45,423 nt of DNA. It comes from a virus (taxonomy: Duplodnaviria > Heunggongvirae > Uroviricota > Caudoviricetes). Below the pieces are notes generated by a model. The model was given only the letters and a program-made list of their open reading frames with translations, ran no database searches and was not told where the DNA came from. Made by a program: the position numbers and the translations under genes. Of this stretch, positions 2,972 to 22,734 are shown one piece after another. Location: IMG/VR virus record IMGVR_UViG_2563366980_000004, one strand, 5' to 3'. Position 1 is the stretch's first letter, and every line of letters starts with the position of its first letter.

Positions 2972-3344
2972 TTTATCTTTTACCTGAAACAAATTTTTAT
3001 TAAAGTAACTTAAAAAATGATTGATTGCAAGATTTACTATTGCTGTTCATTTTAAATTACTATACCCCCCTATGCATACATATAATCCCATAGGGGAGAA
3101 GTTTATTAGTTAGTTAAGTTGAAGGCTATACCTACAATCTAATTCCCCTCCAACCTAACATGCACAAGCGTCAACCTATCGGTAGTGATAATTTTATGAG
3201 GATACGTATAAACAAGATTCTGAGTTGCTCCTATTCATTAAGACAATACATTTTGTAACTTCTGCTTTTGGCTCAGGGTGGGGTGTGAGATTAGGTTTGG
3301 CTCTGTGCCATAGATGTGTCAGTTCACATCTGAGCTAATACACA

Positions 3345-9095: not shown

Positions 9096-9639
9096 TCATC
9101 ACTGGAAAGTGGAAAAACAGCCTGAGTGGTACGTGAAAGCTGTCAGAAAAACTATCGCGGCGTTGCCGGGGGGTTACGCTGAAGCTGCTGAGTGGCTGGA
9201 TGTAACAGAGAACGCTTTATTCAACCGCCTTCGTGCAGATGGCGATCAGATTTTCCCGCTGGGATGGGCAATGATTTTACAGCGTGCTGCTGGCACTCAC
9301 TACATTGCGGATGCTGTCGCACAGTCTGCTGGTGGGGTGTTTGTATCGCTTCCTGAAATTGAGGAAGTAGAGAACGCAGATATAAACCAGCGCCTGCTGG
9401 AAGTCATCGAACAGATCGGGAGTTACTCAAAGCAGATTCGTTCGGCAATCGAAGATGGGGTAGTGGAGCCACACGAGCAGACAGCAATTAATGATGAATT
9501 GTATCTGTCAATTTCGAAGCTCCAGGAGCATGCGGCACTGGTCTACAAAATTTTCTGCGCTCCAGAAAAGAGTGACGCCCGCGAGTGTGCAGCTCCGGGC
9601 GTCGTGGCGTTTTGTGTCTGTGGAGAAACTAACGCATGA
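9088..9639 (+). CDS. CII-like / YdaT-like early regulatory protein
   Basis: 183 aa; GTG start with AGGAGG RBS; position after cro; weak resemblance to CII/YdaT-family proteins (functional call tentative). Confidence 0.6.
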   Translation: MGNHHWKVEKQPEWYVKAVRKTIAALPGGYAEAAEWLDVTENALFNRLRADGDQIFPLGWAMILQRAAGTHYIADAVAQSAGGVFVSLPEIEEVENADINQRLLEVIEQIGSYSKQIRSAIEDGVVEPHEQTAINDELYLSISKLQEHAALVYKIFCAPEKSDARECAAPGVVAFCVCGETNA

Positions 9640-10787
9640 ACAGTTTAACGGCAAATAACCGTTTGTCGCAACAGCTGGTGGTCAGTGTCGCTGCACACCT
9701 GTTGTTACGGCATGAATGCAGATTACCAAATCACCTGGCTGTAAGTAACCACAGAGAACTTTACCTGACTGTGGGGGGCGAGTTGTGCAGGAACTTAACC
9801 GCTGGTTTCGTGACGGAAGAGGACTTTATGTTCATGTTATTCGTTGGGAGCCAGAAACACAGCGCGTTATCTATCTTCGCAAAGACTACCCGCATGAGTG
9901 CTTTAGTCCTTTGTGGAAATTCAGGCGTGATTTTGTTGAGTGTGAAGGACCACCAGCACATTGATTCTGCCATTCCGGGACGTTACACTGTTCAGGCACC
10001 TTATAAAGCGGGTGCCGGGCGTGGAAACCCGGAATTCACCAAAGCGCACAACCGCGCTCTTGCGGTTTTTTTGTGTCATGAGCAGCATTACGCCCAAATT
10101 ATGGTGGGGCGTGCAGGGCCAACTTCGGTTGGGCCGGGTTCTTTGGTGACCGGTATTTCCACCCCTGTACGTCTCACCACCAATAAGGTCGTGGAAAGCC
10201 TTGGTGGTGAGTTATTAAAAATCACCAAAGAGGCTGCCATCATGGCTACGATCCCAACCCTCACTCAACCTGAAATTGCCATCGTTGATGGTCAGGCTGT
10301 TACTTCATCCCTGGCTGTTGCCAACTTCTTCTCCAAACGTCATGACGATGTACTGAAAAAGATCCGCACGCTTGAATGTTCCGCATCATTCACTGCCCGC
10401 AATTTTTCGGTGAGTGATTACACCGATTGCACAGGCCGCAAACTACCTTGCTATCAAATAACCCGCGACGGCTTTGCGTTTCTTGCTATGGGTTTCACGG
10501 GTAAACGTGCTGCCCAGTTCAAAGAGGCATACATCAATGCCTTTAACCAGATGGAGAAACAGCTTTCAAAGCCCGCTGTACCGAGCGACGTTGCACATAA
10601 CGCCAGCGTTCTCTGTTCCTACATTTCATCAATTCATCAGGTCTGGCTGCAGCAGCTTTATCCTATGTTGGCAAAAGCCGAATCTCCGCTGGCTGTTAGC
10701 TTATATGACTATATTAATGATGCTTCGGCGCTGGCCTGCCTCATAAATTTGTCGCTGAACCCTTCAGAGGTAAGGGGGCGCAAATGA
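9636..10787 (+). CDS. Rha-family phage regulatory protein (Rha domain from ATG 10242; status of the upstream 200 codons uncertain)
   Basis: C-terminal 182 aa (MATIPTLTQPEIAIVDGQAVTSSLAVANFFSKRHDDVLKKIR...) matches the Rha domain, with an AAGAGG RBS before 10242; the same frame is stop-free back to an ATGA overlap with the upstream gene but has odd composition and an internal terminator-like hairpin. Confidence 0.5.
   Translation: MNSLTANNRLSQQLVVSVAAHLLLRHECRLPNHLAVSNHRELYLTVGGELCRNLTAGFVTEEDFMFMLFVGSQKHSALSIFAKTTRMSALVLCGNSGVILLSVKDHQHIDSAIPGRYTVQAPYKAGAGRGNPEFTKAHNRALAVFLCHEQHYAQIMVGRAGPTSVGPGSLVTGISTPVRLTTNKVVESLGGELLKITKEAAIMATIPTLTQPEIAIVDGQAVTSSLAVANFFSKRHDDVLKKIRTLECSASFTARNFSVSDYTDCTGRKLPCYQITRDGFAFLAMGFTGKRAAQFKEAYINAFNQMEKQLSKPAVPSDVAHNASVLCSYISSIHQVWLQQLYPMLAKAESPLAVSLYDYINDASALACLINLSLNPSEVRGRK
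10050..10072 (+). terminator. Intrinsic terminator-like hairpin plus T-run (tR1-like)
   Basis: ACCGC-GCTCTT-GCGGT followed by TTTTTTT. Confidence 0.45.
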
Positions 10788-11825: not shown

Positions 11826-12314
11826 ATGAGTCTTTTGAATGAAGTTCAGAAATTCATTGAAGCCCATCCGGGGTGTACTTCTGGAGACATTGCGGATGCT
11901 TTTGCTGGTTACTCACGGCAGCGCGTTCTGCAGTCAGCAAGCAAGTTACGTCAGAGTGGGCGTGTGGCTCACCGTTGTGAAGGAGATACACGCAGACATT
12001 TCCCGCGCCTGACTGAGAGAGCGCAGGAGCCGGAACCACAATCTGTTCGTGAAACCAGACCTGTGCGCAATTTCTATGTCGGCACTAACGACCCCCGGGT
12101 GATTTTGTGCCTGACCCGCCTGGCTGAAGAACTGGAGTCCAGGGGCTTATTCCGTCGAGCTGCAACGGTGTGGATGGAGGCATTCCGTGAAAGCCACTCC
12201 CAGCCAGAACGAAACAATTTTCTGGCGCATCGTGAGCGGTGCTTACGGAAAAGCAGCAAGCGCGCTGCATCGGGTGAAGAGTGGTATCTGTCAGGGAATT
12301 ACGTGGGGGCTTAA
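11826..12314 (+). CDS. PerC-family transcriptional regulator-like protein (YfdN-like)
   Basis: Motif LESRGLFRRAATVWMEAF resembles the PerC/Pch signature; ATG 11826 with GGGGGTG RBS; length matches E. coli YfdN (164 aa). Confidence 0.55.
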   Translation: MSLLNEVQKFIEAHPGCTSGDIADAFAGYSRQRVLQSASKLRQSGRVAHRCEGDTRRHFPRLTERAQEPEPQSVRETRPVRNFYVGTNDPRVILCLTRLAEELESRGLFRRAATVWMEAFRESHSQPERNNFLAHRERCLRKSSKRAASGEEWYLSGNYVGA

Positions 12315-12967
12315 TGAGTAATAAATATTGCCAGGCGCTGGTGGAGCTGCGGAACAAACCAGCCCATGAACTGAAGGAAGTGGGCGATCAGTGGCGCACG
12401 CCGGACAACATTTTCTGGGGAATTAACACCCTGTTTGGCCCGTTTGTTCTGGATCTGTTTACTGATGGTGATAACGCCAAATGTGCCGCTTATTACACTG
12501 CGGAAGACAACGCGCTGGCGCATGACTGGTCAGAACGTCTTGCGGAGCTTAAAGGTGCTGCCTTTGGTAATCCCCCGTACAGCCGCGCGAGTCAGCATGA
12601 GGGGCAATACATCACCGGCATGCGTTACATCATGAAACATGCCAGTGCTATGCGTGATAAAGGCGGGCGCTATGTTTTCCTGATCAAAGCTGCCACCAGC
12701 GAAGTTTGGTGGCCGGAAGATGCAGACCATATTGCTTTTATTCGCGGGCGTATTGGTTTTGAACTGCCAGCCTGGTTTATCCCGAAGGACGAGAAGCAGG
12801 TGCCGACAGGCGCTTTCTTCGCTGGTGCTATTGCTGTTTTCGACAAGACCTGGAAGGGACCGGCAATCAGCTACATCGGGCGCGATGAACTTGAGGCATG
12901 TGGTGAGGCCTTTCTGGCGCAGGTTCGCCAGCAGGCGGAAAAACTGGTCAGGGAGATGGCGGCATGA
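12314..12967 (+). CDS. Phage N6-adenine DNA methyltransferase (Dam-like)
   Basis: NPPY catalytic motif (FGNPPYS); start at MSNKYC with TAATG overlap. Confidence 0.85.
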   Translation: MSNKYCQALVELRNKPAHELKEVGDQWRTPDNIFWGINTLFGPFVLDLFTDGDNAKCAAYYTAEDNALAHDWSERLAELKGAAFGNPPYSRASQHEGQYITGMRYIMKHASAMRDKGGRYVFLIKAATSEVWWPEDADHIAFIRGRIGFELPAWFIPKDEKQVPTGAFFAGAIAVFDKTWKGPAISYIGRDELEACGEAFLAQVRQQAEKLVREMAA

Positions 12968-14494: not shown

Positions 14495-15490
14495 GTGACC
14501 GTGAGAGCACTACTGACCCCTGAAATTGCCCCGCGTATGGGGATCGTATTGTTCAGACCCGGTTCAGAGCTGATGCCCCTGTTTATGCAGGGGCGTGTCC
14601 TGCTGGAGCCTGAGCCGGAACGTTATTCATCTTTCGCCAGTGGTGCCGTTCCGGCGGCATCACAACCGCTGGCGGATGATCCTGCCGTTCGGGCCGTGTT
14701 CCGCAATGAGGCAGTTATTCGTCGTGCGGGTGGCGTGGAATGTCTTGAAAGCTGGTTACTTCGTGAAAAGGGCTGTCAGTGGCCTCATTCCGACTGGCAC
14801 AGCGAGAACATGACCACAATGCGACACGCTCCGGGCGCAATCCGTCTGTGCTGGCACTGCGATAACCTGCTTCGCGATCAGTTCACGGAACGGCTGGAAT
14901 CAATGGCAACGGATAACTGTGCCCGCTGGGTGTTGTCTGTTGTGCGTCGGGATCTCGGTTTTGATGACAGTCACGTTGTGACAATGCCGGAACTGTGCTG
15001 GTGGCTGATTCGTAATGACCTGGCGGATGCCTTACCGGAAAGTGCAGCCCGTAAGGCACTGAGATTACCAAAGCCTGTTGTGCCGTCTGTCACCCGGGAA
15101 AGTGACCTTGTGCCTTCGGTTCCTGCCACCAGCATCATCCAGGATAAAGCGAAAAAGGTGCTGGCGCTGAAAGTGGATCCGGAGTCGCCGGAGTCTTATA
15201 TGTTACGCCCAAAACGTCGCCGCTGGGTTAATGAAAAGTACACGCGCTGGGTTAAGACACAGCCGTGTGCATGTTGTGGAAAGCCCGCTGATGATCCCCA
15301 CCACCTGATAGGTCACGGTCAGGGTGGAATGGGAACAAAAGCGCATGACCTTTTTGTGTTGCCTTTGTGCAGAAAGCATCACGACGAGCTGCATGCGGAT
15401 ACCGTGGCATTTGAAGAGATGTATGGCTCCCAGCTGGAGCTGATATTTCGTTTTATCGATCGTGCGCTGGCAATTGGCGTGCTGGCCTGA
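14495..15490 (+). CDS. DUF968 domain phage protein
   Basis: GTG start; C-terminal Cys/His-rich motif [43 protein letters not shown] typical of DUF968. Confidence 0.7.
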
Positions 15491-15507
15491 TTTTGTGGAG
15501 AAAGTTG

Positions 15508-15873
15508 ATGCGTGATATTCAAATGGTTCTTGAACATTGGGGGGCATGGGTGGCAAATAATCACGAGGATGTCACCTGGTCGTCTATTGCTGCAGGATTT
15601 AAAGGACTAATCCCTTCAAAAGTAAAATCCCGCCCGCAATGTTGTGACGATGATGCGATGATCATTTGTGGGTGCATGGCTCGCTTGAAAAAGAACAACA
15701 GCGATTTGCACGATTTATTAGTGGGTTATTATGTAGGTGGTATGACGTTTATGGCGCTTGCCCGTAAACATGGGCGTTCTGATTGCTGGGTTGGGCGTTT
15801 ATTGCAAAAGGCTGAAGGTGTAGTTGATGGCATGTTAATGATGTTAGAAATTGAGCTAGAGATGGATCGTTAG
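15508..15873 (+). CDS. Q: Antitermination protein Q
   Basis: [34 protein letters not shown]...[20 protein letters not shown] matches enterobacterial prophage Q antiterminators; ATG 15508 with GGAGAAAG RBS. Confidence 0.8.
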
Positions 15874-16404: not shown

Positions 16405-16469
16405 GTTTCTTATCCATTGTTAAGGGCATACCCACACAATTATTTTTATTGGAGATGAATAATCAACCG

Positions 16470-16497
16470 TTTACAATCGTAAAAAATCAAATATGCT
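16470..16497 (+). promoter_or_regulatory. Candidate late promoter pR'
   Basis: TTTACA - 16 nt - TATGCT, about 35-60 nt upstream of a terminator, resembling the lambda pR'/tR' short-RNA arrangement. Confidence 0.35.
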
Positions 16498-16530
16498 GTT
16501 AAGAGTGGTTACTTCGCCACACAACTTAAA

Positions 16531-16557
16531 CCCGCCGCTGAGCGGTTTTTTTGTACC
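16531..16557 (+). terminator. tR'-like intrinsic terminator
   Basis: GC hairpin CCGC-TGA-GCGG followed by TTTTTTT. Confidence 0.45.
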
Positions 16558-16650
16558 TGTAAACTTGGTGCAGTACAGTAAACACGCTGGTGGTCGTGAA
16601 TACTGACTTTTTATCTTGCTGGCTTTTTAGACAAGAGTTATTGGTATGTC

Positions 16651-16878
16651 ATGTTAATCAGAAGGGAAAAAGACATGCTAAAACAGCAAGATATGACAGA
16701 AACCGCCGCCGCAGTCCTTCATTTCTTACCTGCTGACAAGTGGGTAACGCCACGCATGATGACGAGAACTACCGGAGTAAGCGAAGCCCAGTGCCAGTTA
16801 ATACTGACTCAGTTAGTTCTGGCGGGTCTGGCGAAGGATAACGGCGGGTACGGGAATAAATTCAGACGCTGCCAGTAA
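16651..16878 (+). CDS. Hypothetical small protein (possibly winged-helix)
   Basis: 75-aa ORF; alternative ATG at 16675 has a better RBS; no family recognised. Confidence 0.4.
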   Translation: MLIRREKDMLKQQDMTETAAAVLHFLPADKWVTPRMMTRTTGVSEAQCQLILTQLVLAGLAKDNGGYGNKFRRCQ

Positions 16879-17028
16879 TGGCGGTTTCCTGCTGTGAAAA
16901 TGGGCGGCTGGTGGGTGTTGGTAGCACCTGCCAGCCATTCGCTCATGCTTACTGGTCACAAGCGAACCACGGCCCACTGCTTTAGCGCAAAAGCAGAGTG
17001 AGCCTACCAGAGTTACGCTTACTGATCC

Positions 17029-18081
17029 ATGAAAAATACTGTAAGAATAAACAGTGTTGATTTAATCAACGCTGATTGCCTGCATTTTATTCAGTCCCTG
17101 CCTGATGATTCCATTGACCTGATTGTTACCGATCCGCCGTACTTCAAGGTGAAACCCAACGGCTGGGACAATCAGTGGAAAGGGGACGAAGATTACCTTA
17201 AGTGGCTGGACCACTGTCTGGCCCAGTTCTGGCGGGTGTTAAAACCTGCCGGAAGCCTTTACCTGTTCTGTGGGCATCGTCTGGCATCTGATATTGAGGT
17301 CATGATGCGTGAACGTTTCAACGTGCTTAACCATATCATCTGGGCGAAGCCGTCCGGACGTTGGAATGGGTGTAATAAAGAAAGTCTGCGCGCATATTTT
17401 CCTGCCACAGAGCGCGTTCTGTTTGCTGAACATTACCAGGGGCCATATCGCGGCAAAAGTGACGGCTATGCGGCAAAAGAAAGGGAACTCAAACAGCACA
17501 TAATGGCACCGCTGATATCGTATTTCAGGGATGCTCGTGCCGAACTGGGTATAACGGCAAAACAAATTGCCGAAGCCACAGGTAAGAAAAATATGGTTTC
17601 CCACTGGTTTGGTGCCAGTCAGTGGCAGTTGCCGAATGAGGCTGACTATCGGAAGTTACAGGCACTGTTTTCCCGTATAGCGGCAGAGAAGTTTCAGGAA
17701 CAACAACTGGAACAACCACACCACCAGCTGGTGGCATCTTATGATTCACTGAATCGCAAATATTCTGAATTGCTGGATGAGTTTAAATCTCTCCGGCGCT
17801 ATTTCTCCGTATCAGTCTCCGTGCCTTATACCGATGTCTGGATGCATAAACCCGTTCAGTTCTACCCGGGTAAACATCCGTGTGAGAAACCGGCGGATAT
17901 GCTCAGGCAAATAATCAATGCCAGTAGTCGACCTGGTGATCTGGTTGCTGATTTTTTTATGGGATCCGGTTCCACAATAAAAGCAGCAATGGCGCTGGGG
18001 CGTCGGGCCTTAGGTGTTGAGCTTGAGTCAGAGCGGTTTAACCAGACAGTGAAAGAGATAAACGAGCTGGTGGGGAAATAA
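17029..18081 (+). CDS. DNA methyltransferase (N6-adenine/N4-cytosine class, DPPY motif)
   Basis: 350 aa; IVTDPPYF catalytic motif near the N-terminus and an AdoMet-binding-like FFMGSGST motif near the C-terminus; no adjacent restriction endonuclease. Confidence 0.85.
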
Positions 18082-18148
18082 TTTGGTGGCCACGTCAGGT
18101 GGCCTTTTTATTTCCATTACACAGCACCCGCATCTGCGAGGTGGGGTT

Positions 18149-18364
18149 ATGAAATCCATGGATAAGTTAACAACGGGTGTCGCCTATGGCACCTCAGCAG
18201 GTAGTGCCGGTTACTGGTTTTTACAGCTGCTCGATAAAGTCACGCCCTCACAGTGGGCAGCAATAGGTGTGCTGGGTAGCCTGGTATTTGGCCTGCTGAC
18301 GTACCTGACAAACCTTTATTTCAAGATTAAAGAAGATAAGCGCAAGGCTGCGAGAGGTGAATAA
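18149..18364 (+). CDS. S: Pinholin (phage-21 S21-type class II holin)
   Basis: 71 aa from [26 protein letters not shown]; two TM segments; GAGGTGGGG RBS; matches my recollection of S21. Confidence 0.85.
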
Positions 18365-18861
18365 TGCCTCCATCATTACGAAAAGCAGTTGCTGCTGCTA
18401 TTGGTGGCGGAGCAATTGCTATAGCATCAGTGTTAATCACTGGCCCAAGTGGTGACGATGGCCTGGAAGGTGTCAGCTACATACCATACAAAGATATCGT
18501 TGGCGTATGGACTGTATGTCACGGACACACCGGAAAAGACATCATGCTCGGTAAAACGTATACCGAAGCAGAATGCAAAGCCCTCCTGAATAAAGACCTT
18601 GCCACGGTTGCCAGACAAATTAACCCGTACATCAAAGTCGATATACCGGAAACAACGCGCGGCGCTCTTTACTCGTTCGTCTACAACGTGGGTGCTGGCA
18701 ATTTCAGAACATCGACGCTTCTTCGCAAAATAAACCAGGGCGATATCAAAGGCGCATGTGACCAGCTACGTCGCTGGATATACGCTGGCGGTAAGCAATG
18801 GAAAGGCCTGATGACTCGTCGTGAGATTGAGCGTGAAGTCTGTTTGTGGGGGCAACAATGA
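18364..18861 (+). CDS. R: SAR endolysin (phage-21 R-type lysozyme)
   Basis: N-terminal signal-anchor-release segment ([18 protein letters not shown]) followed by a lysozyme domain; ATGA overlap with the holin stop. Confidence 0.9.
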
Positions 18862-19325
18862 GCAGAGTAACCGCGATTATCTCCGCTCTGGTTATCTGCA
18901 TCATCGTCTGCCTGTCGTGGGCGGTCAATCATTACCGTGATAACGCCATCGCCTACAAAGAACAGCGAGATAAAAAAGTCAGTGAGCTGAAGCAGGCGAC
19001 CGCCACCATTACTGACATGCAGCAGCGCCAGCGTTCTGCTGATGCACTCGATGCTAAATACACGAAGGAGTTAGCTGATGCGAAAGCTGAAAATGATGCT
19101 CTTCGGCGCAAGCTTGATAATGGTGGTCGGGTGTTCGTCAAAGGAAAATGCCCTGTGCCATCCTCAGCCGAAACCTCCAGCGCCTCCGGCATGGGCAATG
19201 ATGCCACCGTCGAACTCTCTCCAGTTGCTGGACGAAACGTTCTCGGTATCCGGGACGGAATTATCCGCGACCAAACAGCACTGAGAACGCTTCAGGAATA
19301 CATCAGGACGCAATGCCTTCGATGA
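18858..19325 (+). CDS. Rz: Rz i-spanin
   Basis: N-terminal TM ([18 protein letters not shown]) and coiled-coil periplasmic domain; ATGA overlap with R. Confidence 0.8.
19078..19284 (+). CDS. Rz1: Rz1 o-spanin (embedded in Rz, +1 frame)
   Basis: Lipoprotein signal (LIMVVGCSS) and Pro-rich mature region entirely within Rz. Confidence 0.7.
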
Positions 19326-20140: not shown

Positions 20141-20632
20141 ATGGATCATGAGTTGAAAAAACTGGTGCTGAATATTAATCAACTGGCGGCTTTATCTGGT
20201 CTGCACCGCCAGACTGTCGTGGCAAGACTGAAAAACATTCGTCCCGCTGGTGGACATGACAAACTCAAGCTATACCGGTTGACCGATATTCTGACTGAAT
20301 TTATGGGGTTACCACCGCCGGTTGCTGAGGGCGAAATGGATCCACATGAACGCAAAGCCTGGTATCAGTCTGAACGTGAGCGTCTTAAGTTCGAACAGGA
20401 AACGGCACAACTCATTCCGGCCAGTGATGTCAGACGGGAGTTTGCCATCTGGGCAAAAGCGGTCGTGCAGGTGCTGGAGACATTACCGGATATTCTGGAA
20501 CGTGACTGTGGTCTGCAGCCTGCCGCTGTGAGCCGTGTTCAGTCCATTATTGATGATCTGCGCGATCAGATAGCCCTGCGGGTGACCGAAGCAGGTGCGG
20601 ATGATGAGGAGGAATTACAGCAGGAGGAGTAA
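20141..20632 (+). CDS. Terminase small subunit (Nu1-like, N-terminal HTH)
   Basis: 163 aa; N-terminal HTH (LNINQLAALSGLHRQTVVARL); acidic C-terminus; first gene after cos. Confidence 0.75.
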   Translation: MDHELKKLVLNINQLAALSGLHRQTVVARLKNIRPAGGHDKLKLYRLTDILTEFMGLPPPVAEGEMDPHERKAWYQSERERLKFEQETAQLIPASDVRREFAIWAKAVVQVLETLPDILERDCGLQPAAVSRVQSIIDDLRDQIALRVTEAGADDEEELQQEE

Positions 20633-22734
20633 TGCTGAATCAGGAAACCGCAAAGGCAGCACGAACCGATTCAGGTTATATCCTTCGCGCACCGAGACGA
20701 ATGCGGGTTGCTGATGCCGTTGCTCAGTATATGCGGGTGCCCATGGGGGCAGGGAACTCAGTCCCGTGGGATCCGCTGGTGGCACCGTATGTTATTGAGC
20801 CGATGAACTGCCTGGCCTCGCGTGAATACGACGCAGTGATATTTGTTGGCCCGGCACGAACCGGCAAGACTATCGGCCTGATTGACGGCTGGGTGATTTA
20901 CAACGTGATTTGCGATCCTGCGGATATGCTGATCATTCAGATGACGGAGGAAAAAGCCCGCGAACACTCCAAAAAACGACTCGCCAGAACGTTTCGCGTC
21001 AGCCCGGAAGTGGTCAGTCGCCTGAGTCCGAACAAAAATGACAACAACGTTTATGACAGAACATTCCTTGCTGGCAACTACCTGAAAATCGGCTGGCCGT
21101 CAGTCAATATCATGTCCTCATCAGATTATAAATGCGTGGCGCTGACGGATTATGACCGTTTTCCGGAAGATATTGATGGCGAGGGGGATGCCTTCTCTCT
21201 TGCCTCAAAACGTACCACCACATTTATGTCCAGTGGTATGACGCTGGTGGAGAGTTCCCCCGGCAGGGATGTGAAGGATGTGAAATGGCGACGGACTTCA
21301 CCGCATGAGGCTCCACCAACCACGGGGATACTGTCGCTCTATAACCGTGGCGATCGCCGTCGCTGGTACTGGCCCTGTCCACACTGTGGTGAGTATTTTC
21401 AGCCCTGCGGCGATGTGGTTGCTGGTTTCCGTGATATTGCCGATCCCGTGCTGGCAAGTGAGGCGGCTTATATTCAGTGTCCTTCCTGTTCAGGACGGAT
21501 TATGCCTGAACAAAAACGCGAGCTGAACGGACGTGGGGTCTGGTTGCGGGATGGTGAATCCATCAATGCGGATGGCAGTCGTTATGGTGATCCCCGACGC
21601 TCACGTATTGCGTCATTCTGGATGGAGGGTCCGGCAGCTGCTTACCAGACACTCTCGCAACTCGTTTACAAACTGCTTACTGCAGAACAGGAATACGAGA
21701 CAACCGGAAGTGAAGAAACACTCAAGACGGTTATCAATACCGACTGGGGATTACCTTATCTTCCCCGTGCCAGCATGGAGCAACGAAAAAGTGAACTGCT
21801 TGAGCAGCGGGCAGAGCCAGTTCCTTCCCGCAGTGTGCCGGATGGCGTTAATTTCCTTGTGGCGACAGTGGATGTGCAGGCGGGACGTCATCGCCGTTTT
21901 GTGGTTCAGGTAACGGGCTATGGCAGCCGTGGCGAACGCTGGATTATTGATCGTTACAACATCACGCAGTCATTGCGCGGTGACAGCGACGGGGAGAGCC
22001 AGCGAATTGATCCGGCCAGCTATCCGGAAGACTGGGATGTCCTGCTGACGGATGTTTTTCATAAAAGCTGGCCGCTGGCCTCCGATCCTTCTCAACAAAT
22101 GCGACTGATGGCAATGGCGGTGGACTCCGGCGGTGAAGACGGGGTCACTGATAATGCCTATAAATTCTGGCGTCGTTGCCGTCGTGATGGCCTTGGTAAA
22201 CGTATTTACCTGTTTAAGGGCGACAGCATCCGGCGCGCAAAACTGATCACCCGTACATTCCCTGATAACACCGGACGAACAGGCCGACGGGCGCAGGCCG
22301 CAGGTGATGTGCCGCTCTGGCTTCTTCAGACGGATGCCCTGAAAGACCGGGTGAATAACGCGTTATGGCGTGACTCTCCAGGTCCCGGCTATGTGCATTT
22401 CCCTGACTGGCTGGGGAGCTGGTTTTACGACGAACTGACGTATGAAGAGCGGAGTAGTGACGGGAAATGGAGTAAGCCGGGTCGCGGTGCCAACGAAGCT
22501 TTTGACCTGATGGTGTATGCCGAGGCTCTGGTCATTCTGCATGGATACGAAAAGATCCGCTGGCCGGATGCACCGGGGTGGGCGAGCCGGGAAACCTGGC
22601 TGGAGTGTGTCCCGGACAGTACCGAACCGTCACCCTCACCGGAACCGGTATCCACGCCTGTTAAAAAACAAAAACGGAAGAAAACAGTAACTGACGATGT
22701 TAACCCCTGGCTGACTTCCGGAGGATGGTTATGA
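20632..22734 (+). CDS. Terminase large subunit (GpA-like)
   Basis: 700 aa; Walker A (VGPARTGKT), large N-terminal ATPase and C-terminal nuclease regions. Confidence 0.9.
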   Translation: MLNQETAKAARTDSGYILRAPRRMRVADAVAQYMRVPMGAGNSVPWDPLVAPYVIEPMNCLASREYDAVIFVGPARTGKTIGLIDGWVIYNVICDPADMLIIQMTEEKAREHSKKRLARTFRVSPEVVSRLSPNKNDNNVYDRTFLAGNYLKIGWPSVNIMSSSDYKCVALTDYDRFPEDIDGEGDAFSLASKRTTTFMSSGMTLVESSPGRDVKDVKWRRTSPHEAPPTTGILSLYNRGDRRRWYWPCPHCGEYFQPCGDVVAGFRDIADPVLASEAAYIQCPSCSGRIMPEQKRELNGRGVWLRDGESINADGSRYGDPRRSRIASFWMEGPAAAYQTLSQLVYKLLTAEQEYETTGSEETLKTVINTDWGLPYLPRASMEQRKSELLEQRAEPVPSRSVPDGVNFLVATVDVQAGRHRRFVVQVTGYGSRGERWIIDRYNITQSLRGDSDGESQRIDPASYPEDWDVLLTDVFHKSWPLASDPSQQMRLMAMAVDSGGEDGVTDNAYKFWRRCRRDGLGKRIYLFKGDSIRRAKLITRTFPDNTGRTGRRAQAAGDVPLWLLQTDALKDRVNNALWRDSPGPGYVHFPDWLGSWFYDELTYEERSSDGKWSKPGRGANEAFDLMVYAEALVILHGYEKIRWPDAPGWASRETWLECVPDSTEPSPSPEPVSTPVKKQKRKKTVTDDVNPWLTSGGWL

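Follow-up and report, generated by a model that had tools for sequence, protein, structure and literature searches.

A late-operon prophage methylase gene of the M.EcoGII family and a conserved structured RNA, probably antisense to its leader

The virus record IMGVR_UViG_2563366980_000004 of IMG/VR (Caudoviricetes) is a DNA stretch of 45,423 nucleotides (nt), referred to below as the window. Its late operon contains a gene for a DNA methyltransferase at 17029-18081, and this locus raises the question of which sites such an enzyme marks, what the phage gains from it and how the gene is controlled. The original prediction, made from the sequence letters, saw an orphan methylase that would be expressed late, either for protection of progeny DNA against host restriction or for epigenetic control, but it missed that the protein belongs to the M.EcoGII family. 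We describe here the evidence for that membership, and a conserved structured RNA element directly upstream of the gene (16894-16998) that is apparently undescribed so far.

The methylase open reading frame (ORF) is intact from ATG through the stop, with 350 uninterrupted codons. The PF01555 (N6_N4_Mtase) profile matches residues 29-341 with an E value of 3.7e-42 (145.2 bits against a cutoff of 26.7) and is covered from position 1 to 220 of its 221 positions, the match being interrupted by a central stretch of some 165 residues. The protein has DPPY at residues 35-38 and FMGSG, a form of FxGxG, at residues 310-314. Because the motifs follow the order catalytic motif IV, central target-recognition region, S-adenosylmethionine-binding motif I, the enzyme was assigned to the beta class, and its relatives in the PDB are the beta-class enzymes M.RsrI, M.MboIIA, CcrM and DpnA. 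At the DNA level the ORF is 100% identical to the RefSeq gene for WP_000799705.1. In the RefSeq annotation of E. coli LS4, which has an identical locus, both methyltransferase genes of the window are called with the same coordinates.

M.EcoGII of E. coli O104:H4 is a prophage-borne, non-specific adenine methyltransferase of the beta class, 349 amino acids in length (PMC5778455). Alignment of the window protein with the protein of the O104:H4 M.EcoGII locus (WP_000935520.1) gave 282 identical residues out of 348 (81%) and no gaps. The M.EcoGII sequence itself was machine-read from the SUPREM supplement and checked against this chromosomal protein; the two agreed at 345 of 350 aligned positions (99%), and the five mismatches look like errors of PDF text reading. 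Identity to M.EcoGII was 87% in the N-terminal Rossmann part and 76.9% in the target-recognition domain, a helix-turn-helix; the two charged linkers, whose charge is similar in the two proteins, were 72-73% identical. These linkers of the M.EcoGII family are absent from M.PflMI, a site-specific relative. Two reconstructed ancestors were compared as well: Anc291, to which the window methylase was 88.5% identical, and SUPREM, with 70% identity. Both ancestors methylate DNA as well as RNA, like M.EcoGII, which is non-specific on DNA and shows no motif on RNA, and no motif emerged when RNA that they had methylated was mapped by nanopore. With 88.5%, 80% and 70% identity to Anc291, M.EcoGII and SUPREM, respectively, the window methylase lies inside the bracket of tested enzymes; its placement within this clade of non-specific members was made by identity alone. 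On these sequence comparisons its membership of the M.EcoGII family is established, and the enzyme would be expected to methylate adenine in essentially any sequence context, leaving no motif. The late-operon methylase is therefore already known and is no new kind of enzyme, as the family has been characterised and the identical protein is in RefSeq.

The genetic setting agrees with the original prediction that this gene belongs to the late transcription unit. It lies downstream of the antiterminator gene Q and upstream of the holin, endolysin and Rz genes, all on the same strand, with a 67-amino-acid ORF and the holin as its immediate neighbours. An intrinsic terminator is present on either side, and both of these methylase-flanking terminators are annotated in the SfV and N15 records. 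The description of both window methylases as orphans was likewise borne out, since neither by profile searches nor in the LS4 RefSeq annotation does a restriction endonuclease adjoin either gene, and the same applies to homologous methylase loci.

In the published view, an M.EcoGII-type methylase is turned on at the lytic switch and gives progeny DNA broad protection (PMC5778455; review PMC12707154). From the anatomy of the window locus and from the literature we infer, with good confidence, that its first large late gene encodes a context-free adenine methylase of this family that is made only late and protects progeny DNA. Late-promoter transcripts would stop, in the lysogen, at the terminator at 16534-16553, and the toxic methylase would for that reason not be made. 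Upon induction, RNA polymerase modified by Q would read through both terminators, so the methylase would be made together with the lysis and structural proteins. Replicating and packaged phage DNA would then become heavily methylated, which should shield the progeny, in the next host, from many restriction systems that are sensitive to adenine methylation.

Several points weigh against this account. To our knowledge, an anti-restriction benefit has not been demonstrated experimentally for any phage that carries a member of the M.EcoGII family, and in the papers cited it is an assumption. The 19% of residues that differ between the window methylase and M.EcoGII would leave room for a residual sequence preference. 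A consensus scan of the window returned promoter-like hexamers only, and neither a late promoter nor a Q-binding site could be assigned. Finally, the methylase start codon is not preceded by a canonical Shine-Dalgarno sequence, which bears on how translation starts.

Two other roles for the enzyme were weighed. We consider it improbable that the window methylase is a sequence-specific orphan that marks a defined motif, for protection or for epigenetic control. The site-specific relative nearest to the family is M.PflMI (CCANNNNNTGG), whose overall fold is predicted to be similar, and RefSeq and other resources label many members of the family as 'site-specific DNA-methyltransferase', although that label is automatic. 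The 81% identity to M.EcoGII argues against specificity, as it is free of insertions and deletions and includes the target-recognition domain and the linkers that M.PflMI lacks. The bracketing ancestors, active on DNA and without a motif on RNA, point the same way, as do the methylomes of lysogens that carry homologues, in which no extra motif was seen. The epigenetic-control alternative of the original prediction found no support here. The second role, in which the enzyme would mainly methylate RNA or perturb the host DNA globally in aid of the lytic programme, appears very unlikely to us. M.EcoGII does methylate RNA and DNA:RNA hybrids in vitro, and its constitutive expression is deleterious to cells, slowing growth and destabilising clones. 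However, its rate on DNA is about 90-fold higher than on RNA (11.12 versus 0.12; PMC11551740, supplementary table S3), and the place of the gene as first in the late operon, which would be expressed during replication and packaging, fits DNA protection.

M.EcoGI and M.EcoGII gave no signal in the methylomes of lysogens, M.EcoGII being silent in that state, and methylomes of O111 Shiga toxin-producing E. coli contained no signal from M.EcoGI or M.EcoGII homologues. A search for modified motifs in lysogens, with the lack of a motif taken as refutation, had been proposed with the original prediction. Such a test is unsound because the homologues are silent in lysogens and because the expected product is free of any motif.

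The methylase is widely distributed and travels with its surroundings. By megablast the late-operon gene was present in 1238 of 5426 complete E. coli genomes, near-identical modules occur in the isolated phages PhiR40_1, Ayreon and mEp460, and the gene is also found in cdtI and SfV. The layout of Q, terminator, methylase, terminator and lysis genes recurs in SfV, cdtI, mEp460, Stx2 phages and N15. The place of first gene after Q and the late terminator was kept in five further loci, among Stx2a phages, N15, Serratia phage OS31 and the M.EcoGII locus; in Stx2a phages, tRNA genes and stx2 follow the methylase. Block 16529-18143, which extends from terminator to terminator and holds the small ORF, the RNA element and the methylase, is common to SfV and cdtI at 91-98% identity. 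SfV shares it at 91% although the flanking Q and holin genes are unrelated, and the block behaves as a single mosaic unit. In phages with different Q genes, the sequences diverge upstream of about 16496-16529 and are common downstream of it. The homologues in isolated phages (SfV orf48, cdtI orf56, mEp460, Ayreon, Stx2a and Stx2c phages, and N15 gene 52) all lie, flanked by terminators, between Q and the lysis or stx genes, and none of their records reports a characterised activity. The N15 gene 52 protein is 58% identical to the window methylase. As a side observation, the start annotated for this gene (285 amino acids) is apparently misplaced by some 78 codons in the downstream direction (interval 3001-3235 of N15 locus L005); the homology with the window protein and the position of the upstream RNA element both point to an ATG at 3001 in that locus.

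The small ORF is separated from the methylase start by 150 bases, a spacing that is the same in four phages, and this segment folds better than shuffled sequences (z = -3.1). The minimum-energy fold of the window's copy, on both strands, consists of a hairpin (P3) and a three-way junction in which helix P0 closes P1 and P2. The distribution of this element was surveyed in 85 loci, made up of 80 methylase loci from different species and five phage loci. It was detected in 56 of the 85 by nhmmer and in 63 by a covariance model, in hosts that included Escherichia, Serratia, Yersinia, Vibrio and Aeromonas, and every match lay just 5' of the methylase in the plus-strand orientation. The covariance model gave nothing convincing in 16 divergent methylase loci, and for this reason we do not regard the element as universal in the family. 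An exact-pattern scan of viral contigs returned 120 matches, 117 of which had a methylase start 52-54 nt downstream; among the remaining three, one had a methylase at a different offset and in two the sequence ended. By sequence similarity the element was present in 2636 of the 5426 complete E. coli genomes, and it also precedes M.EcoGII itself (120 bits).

Covariation supports the fold. In an alignment fitted to the model, 33 of 39 base pairs were changed on both sides and 86% of alignment cells paired, compared to 30-42% in slid controls; none of 500 shuffles matched the observed covariation. A MAFFT alignment made without fitting to the structure had 12 pairs with changes on both sides, compared to 1-9 in slid controls. 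RNAalifold applied to the plain MAFFT alignment recovered helix P0 only, as the hairpin arms of distant members are misaligned there, and a hand-drawn structure and a covariance model were therefore needed. The element is a conserved structured RNA that is strictly linked to this methylase family.

The element did not correspond to a described RNA. No Rfam 15 family matched it at the gathering threshold or with E-values relaxed, the best scores being 12-13 bits against thresholds of 44-90, and none of the AgvB, AsxR, isrK and C4 models, all of which are in Rfam, matched the element. AgvB and AsxR were also considered as the upstream element; they are not present here and lie elsewhere in the moron region. 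StxS is a short transcript that runs from the late promoter to its terminator, and HnrS is 66 nt long and restricted to enterohaemorrhagic and enteropathogenic E. coli, so both were rejected. A preprint on the Pas small RNA does not mention the methylase, and no description of the element was found in the literature searched.

Which strand is transcribed into this RNA was judged from the pattern of base pairs. In helices P1-P3 read on the plus strand, A.C cells outnumber G.U cells by 193 to 27, over more than 20 different pairs. This favours the minus strand, where an A.C cell reads as a G.U wobble. Folding energies pointed the same way for 52 of 60 distinct members, in which the minus strand had the lower minimum (means of -44.1 versus -37.9 kcal/mol), and the gap between the strands was largest in the most divergent members. 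An unpaired plus-strand motif next to the fold, AGCCTAnCA, reads TGnTAnnCT on the minus strand, and its conservation follows that of an extended -10 promoter element: T1 was kept in 61, A2 in 62, T6 in 61 and TGn in 54 of 63 members, with the third and fourth positions variable. Upstream of it on the minus strand are the conserved GATC and the AT-rich first ten codons of the methylase. A consensus scan did not flag a sigma-70 promoter on the minus strand, and the -35 matches at three of six positions; the case for an antisense promoter therefore rests on the conserved extended -10. On these sequence features we prefer a minus-strand RNA that would start near 16994 and run leftward, first across P3 and then across the junction, towards a short U run near 16897-16900. 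Such an RNA had no clear terminator, and the late terminator beside the element looks bidirectional in several loci. We regard the element as a probable cis-antisense RNA directed against the 5' leader of the methylase.

The region 16894-17028 could instead act on the sense strand, as a cis-regulatory leader of the methylase mRNA, for example an operator of translation, a switch of the riboswitch kind or a site of RNA processing, a possibility that we regard as rather doubtful. The element does lie inside the late transcript and directly 5' of the start codon, and a methylase is downstream in 118 of the 120 pattern matches. The window's own copy of the element weighs against our choice of strand, as it folds slightly better on the plus strand (-48.0 versus -44.4 kcal/mol). 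A possible helix by the start codon, P4 (GTGAGC/GCTTAC), has G.U pairs that favour the plus strand, but it shows no both-side change in the alignment not fitted to structure, and it was dropped for that reason in favour of the promoter reading. Some members have a P1 loop that could pair with CUACCA at 17005-17010; a candidate pseudoknot between the P1 loop and CUAYCA covaries in few members and is not kept in many. Together with the excess of A.C cells in P1-P3 and the greater stability of the minus strand in most members, the conservation of AGCCTAnCA exactly as a minus-strand extended -10 argues against a sense leader.

The start of the methylase gene (17024-17055, plus strand) has further conserved features. 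Synonymous sites in codons 1-10 are strongly conserved, with a third-position entropy of 0.33 compared to 1.24 gene-wide, and an invariant inverted repeat, ACTGT/ACAGT, lies within codons 4-9. The conserved GATC stands immediately 5' of the ATG, and the UGAUCC by the methylase start is the complement of GGAUCA in the terminal 3' sequence of 16S rRNA. Further upstream, the stop codon of the small ORF sits in a hairpin loop.

A structured RNA gene upstream of the methylase is likely to add a layer of control to the terminators. Our tentative proposal, which we put forward as a possibility somewhat short of even, is that genes of the M.EcoGII family, with M.EcoGII itself among them, carry a guardian RNA of about 100 nt or more, transcribed antisense from a promoter that overlaps the translation-start region of the methylase, the two forming a pair similar to a toxin and its antitoxin. 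In the lysogen the guardian RNA would neutralise read-through transcripts, either by pairing and cleavage or by promoter interference, and the methylase would be made only once Q-antiterminated late transcription overwhelms it.

Structured cis-antisense RNAs are known to restrain harmful or tightly dosed genes, as in P22 sar/ant, R1 CopA/repA, hok/sok and the EcoRI antisense RNAs. By analogy, the element described here would act like the sar, CopA and hok/sok RNAs. The candidate would resemble sar, CopA, sok and the EcoRI antisense RNAs in being small and structured, in lying opposite a 5' leader, in having its own putative, constitutive-looking promoter and in its toxic target. It differs from them in its three-way-junction architecture, in the lack of any sequence or Rfam relationship and, if it starts near 16994, in not overlapping the start codon.

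Comparable enzymes of other phages are restrained after transcription. The Mu-like prophage enzymes Hia5, Hin1523 and Nma1821, as well as Mom of Mu, modify adenine in a nearly context-free manner and are silent in the lysogen (Drozdz et al. 2012, PMC3299994). Mom and the Hia5-type enzymes are under tight post-transcriptional control by the zinc-finger translational activator Com and are thought to provide broad anti-restriction (PMC3299994). The Hia5-type enzymes are alpha-class relatives of Dam and Mom has an acyltransferase fold, whereas the window methylase is of the beta class, and the window has no Com-like gene. No post-transcriptional control of M.EcoGII was described in the literature searched. 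The locus of M.EcoGII is like that of the window in being part of a lambdoid prophage, in following DUF968, Q and a small ORF, and in having the upstream RNA element; it differs in that tRNA genes follow the methylase in O104:H4, while in the window a terminator and the holin gene follow directly. A tRNA search of the window found none.

The second methyltransferase gene of the window lies in the nin region (Table 1), and here too the original prediction of a Dam-like methylase with an NPPY motif, next to a DPPY-type enzyme in the late operon, was confirmed by motifs and profiles. The ORF carries the NPPY catalytic motif (GNPPYS) and passes the thresholds of PF05869 (E 9.7e-46, 156 bits against a cutoff of 28.1) and of the NCBIfam equivalog TIGR01712, 'phage N-6-adenine-methyltransferase' (255.6 bits against 97.05). 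The two methylases had been called unrelated, which is correct at the level of Pfam families (PF05869 versus PF01555) but does not hold beyond that level. The nin-region gene is surrounded by PerC-like, LexA-like, RusA, KilA-N and DUF968 genes, and copies with 99-100% identity occur in cdtI, SfII and Stx2c phages. It resembles the phage T1 Dam/PF05869 family in its profile scores, its NPPY motif and its nin-region place, which is the same in cdtI, SfII and ST64B. Specificity for GATC is established for few phage Dam members, namely T1 and VT2 Dam, and is plausible for this enzyme from its family. The enzyme is separate from the late methylase and would be expressed earlier, from the delayed-early operon.

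Coordinates of the features discussed are collected in Table 1. The small ORF between the late terminator and the RNA element is not an obligatory part of the module; it occurs in modules of the E. coli type and is present in SfV (orf47), cdtI (orf55), Stx2a_1447 and O104:H4. It is absent from N15 and from loci L098 and L131 (Enterobacter and Hafnia are among such loci), and there the late terminator abuts the RNA element. The lipoprotein-like ORF is inserted between Q and the late-promoter region on the opposite strand; cdtI, Stx2a_1447 and O104:H4 have two other reverse-strand ORFs at this place. RefSeq names the lysis genes essD, rrrD and lysis protein. On the minus strand at 16520-16656, in the stretch from the late terminator to the small ORF, there is a weak full-length match to Rfam STnc130 below threshold (26 bits against a gathering threshold of 55, E 0.43), which is probably due to chance. 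Elsewhere in the window, two Rfam models score above gathering at 9996-10184 on the plus strand, isrK with 67 bits and C4 antisense RNA with 83.6 bits. These matches fall inside ORF 9636-10787, a coding sequence of 383 amino acids that RefSeq names 'Rha family phage regulatory protein'. Its protein start has probably been annotated too far upstream, and its N-terminal half probably represents the RNA genes of a module of the P1/P7 c4-ant or Gifsy-1 IsrK type.

Table 1. Positions of the methylase genes, the RNA element and associated features in the window
Feature	Position	Strand	Evidence or remarks
Phage Dam-type N6-adenine methyltransferase (T1-Dam/PF05869 family), nin region	12314-12967	+	PF05869, TIGR01712
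DUF968 gene	14495-15490	+	
Q-type late antiterminator gene	15493-15873	+	PF06530, E 1.5e-50; RefSeq 'antiterminator Q family protein'
Lipoprotein-like gene, 148 amino acids	15958-16404	-	Signal MNKITVLLLSATIISGC; phrog_3152; no Pfam family
Promoter-like hexamers, candidate late promoter pR' region	16450-16497	+	TGGAGA/TACAAT and TTTACA/TATGCT (consensus scan)
Intrinsic terminator, tR'-like	16534-16553	+	GC hairpin then T run; kept in cdtI and SfV
Small ORF, 67 amino acids, function unknown	16675-16878	+	phrog_331 (E 1.8e-25); between tR' and RNA element
Conserved structured RNA: hairpin P3 and three-way junction (P0, P1, P2)	16894-16998	- (probable)	Covariation, covariance model
Extended -10-like motif TGnTAnnCT, putative antisense RNA promoter	17001-17009	-	TGGTAGGCT here; predicted start near 16994
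M.EcoGII-family beta-class N6-adenine DNA methyltransferase, 350 amino acids	17029-18081	+	PF01555; homology to WP_000935520.1
Intrinsic terminator, methylase stop to holin start	18088-18112	+	GGCCACGTCAGGTGGCC then TTTTTATTT
Lysis cassette: S21-type holin (18149-18364), lysozyme-family endolysin and Rz (18364-19325)	18149-19325	+	PF04971, PF00959, PF03245
Terminase	20632-22734	+	

The methylase itself is one more copy of a characterised and very common prophage enzyme, and its lesson for annotation is that a probably non-specific enzyme is concealed behind names such as 'site-specific DNA-methyltransferase'. If our proposal is true, the RNA element would fill a gap in the known control of M.EcoGII. 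It would explain how lysogens tolerate a harmful gene and why the M.EcoGI and M.EcoGII signal is absent from their methylomes. It would also be a new and widespread RNA family, tied to an enzyme that is a standard reagent for chromatin and RNA footprinting. The methylase and its RNA would then form a pair similar to a toxin and its antitoxin, conserved from phages of Escherichia to those of Vibrio and Aeromonas.

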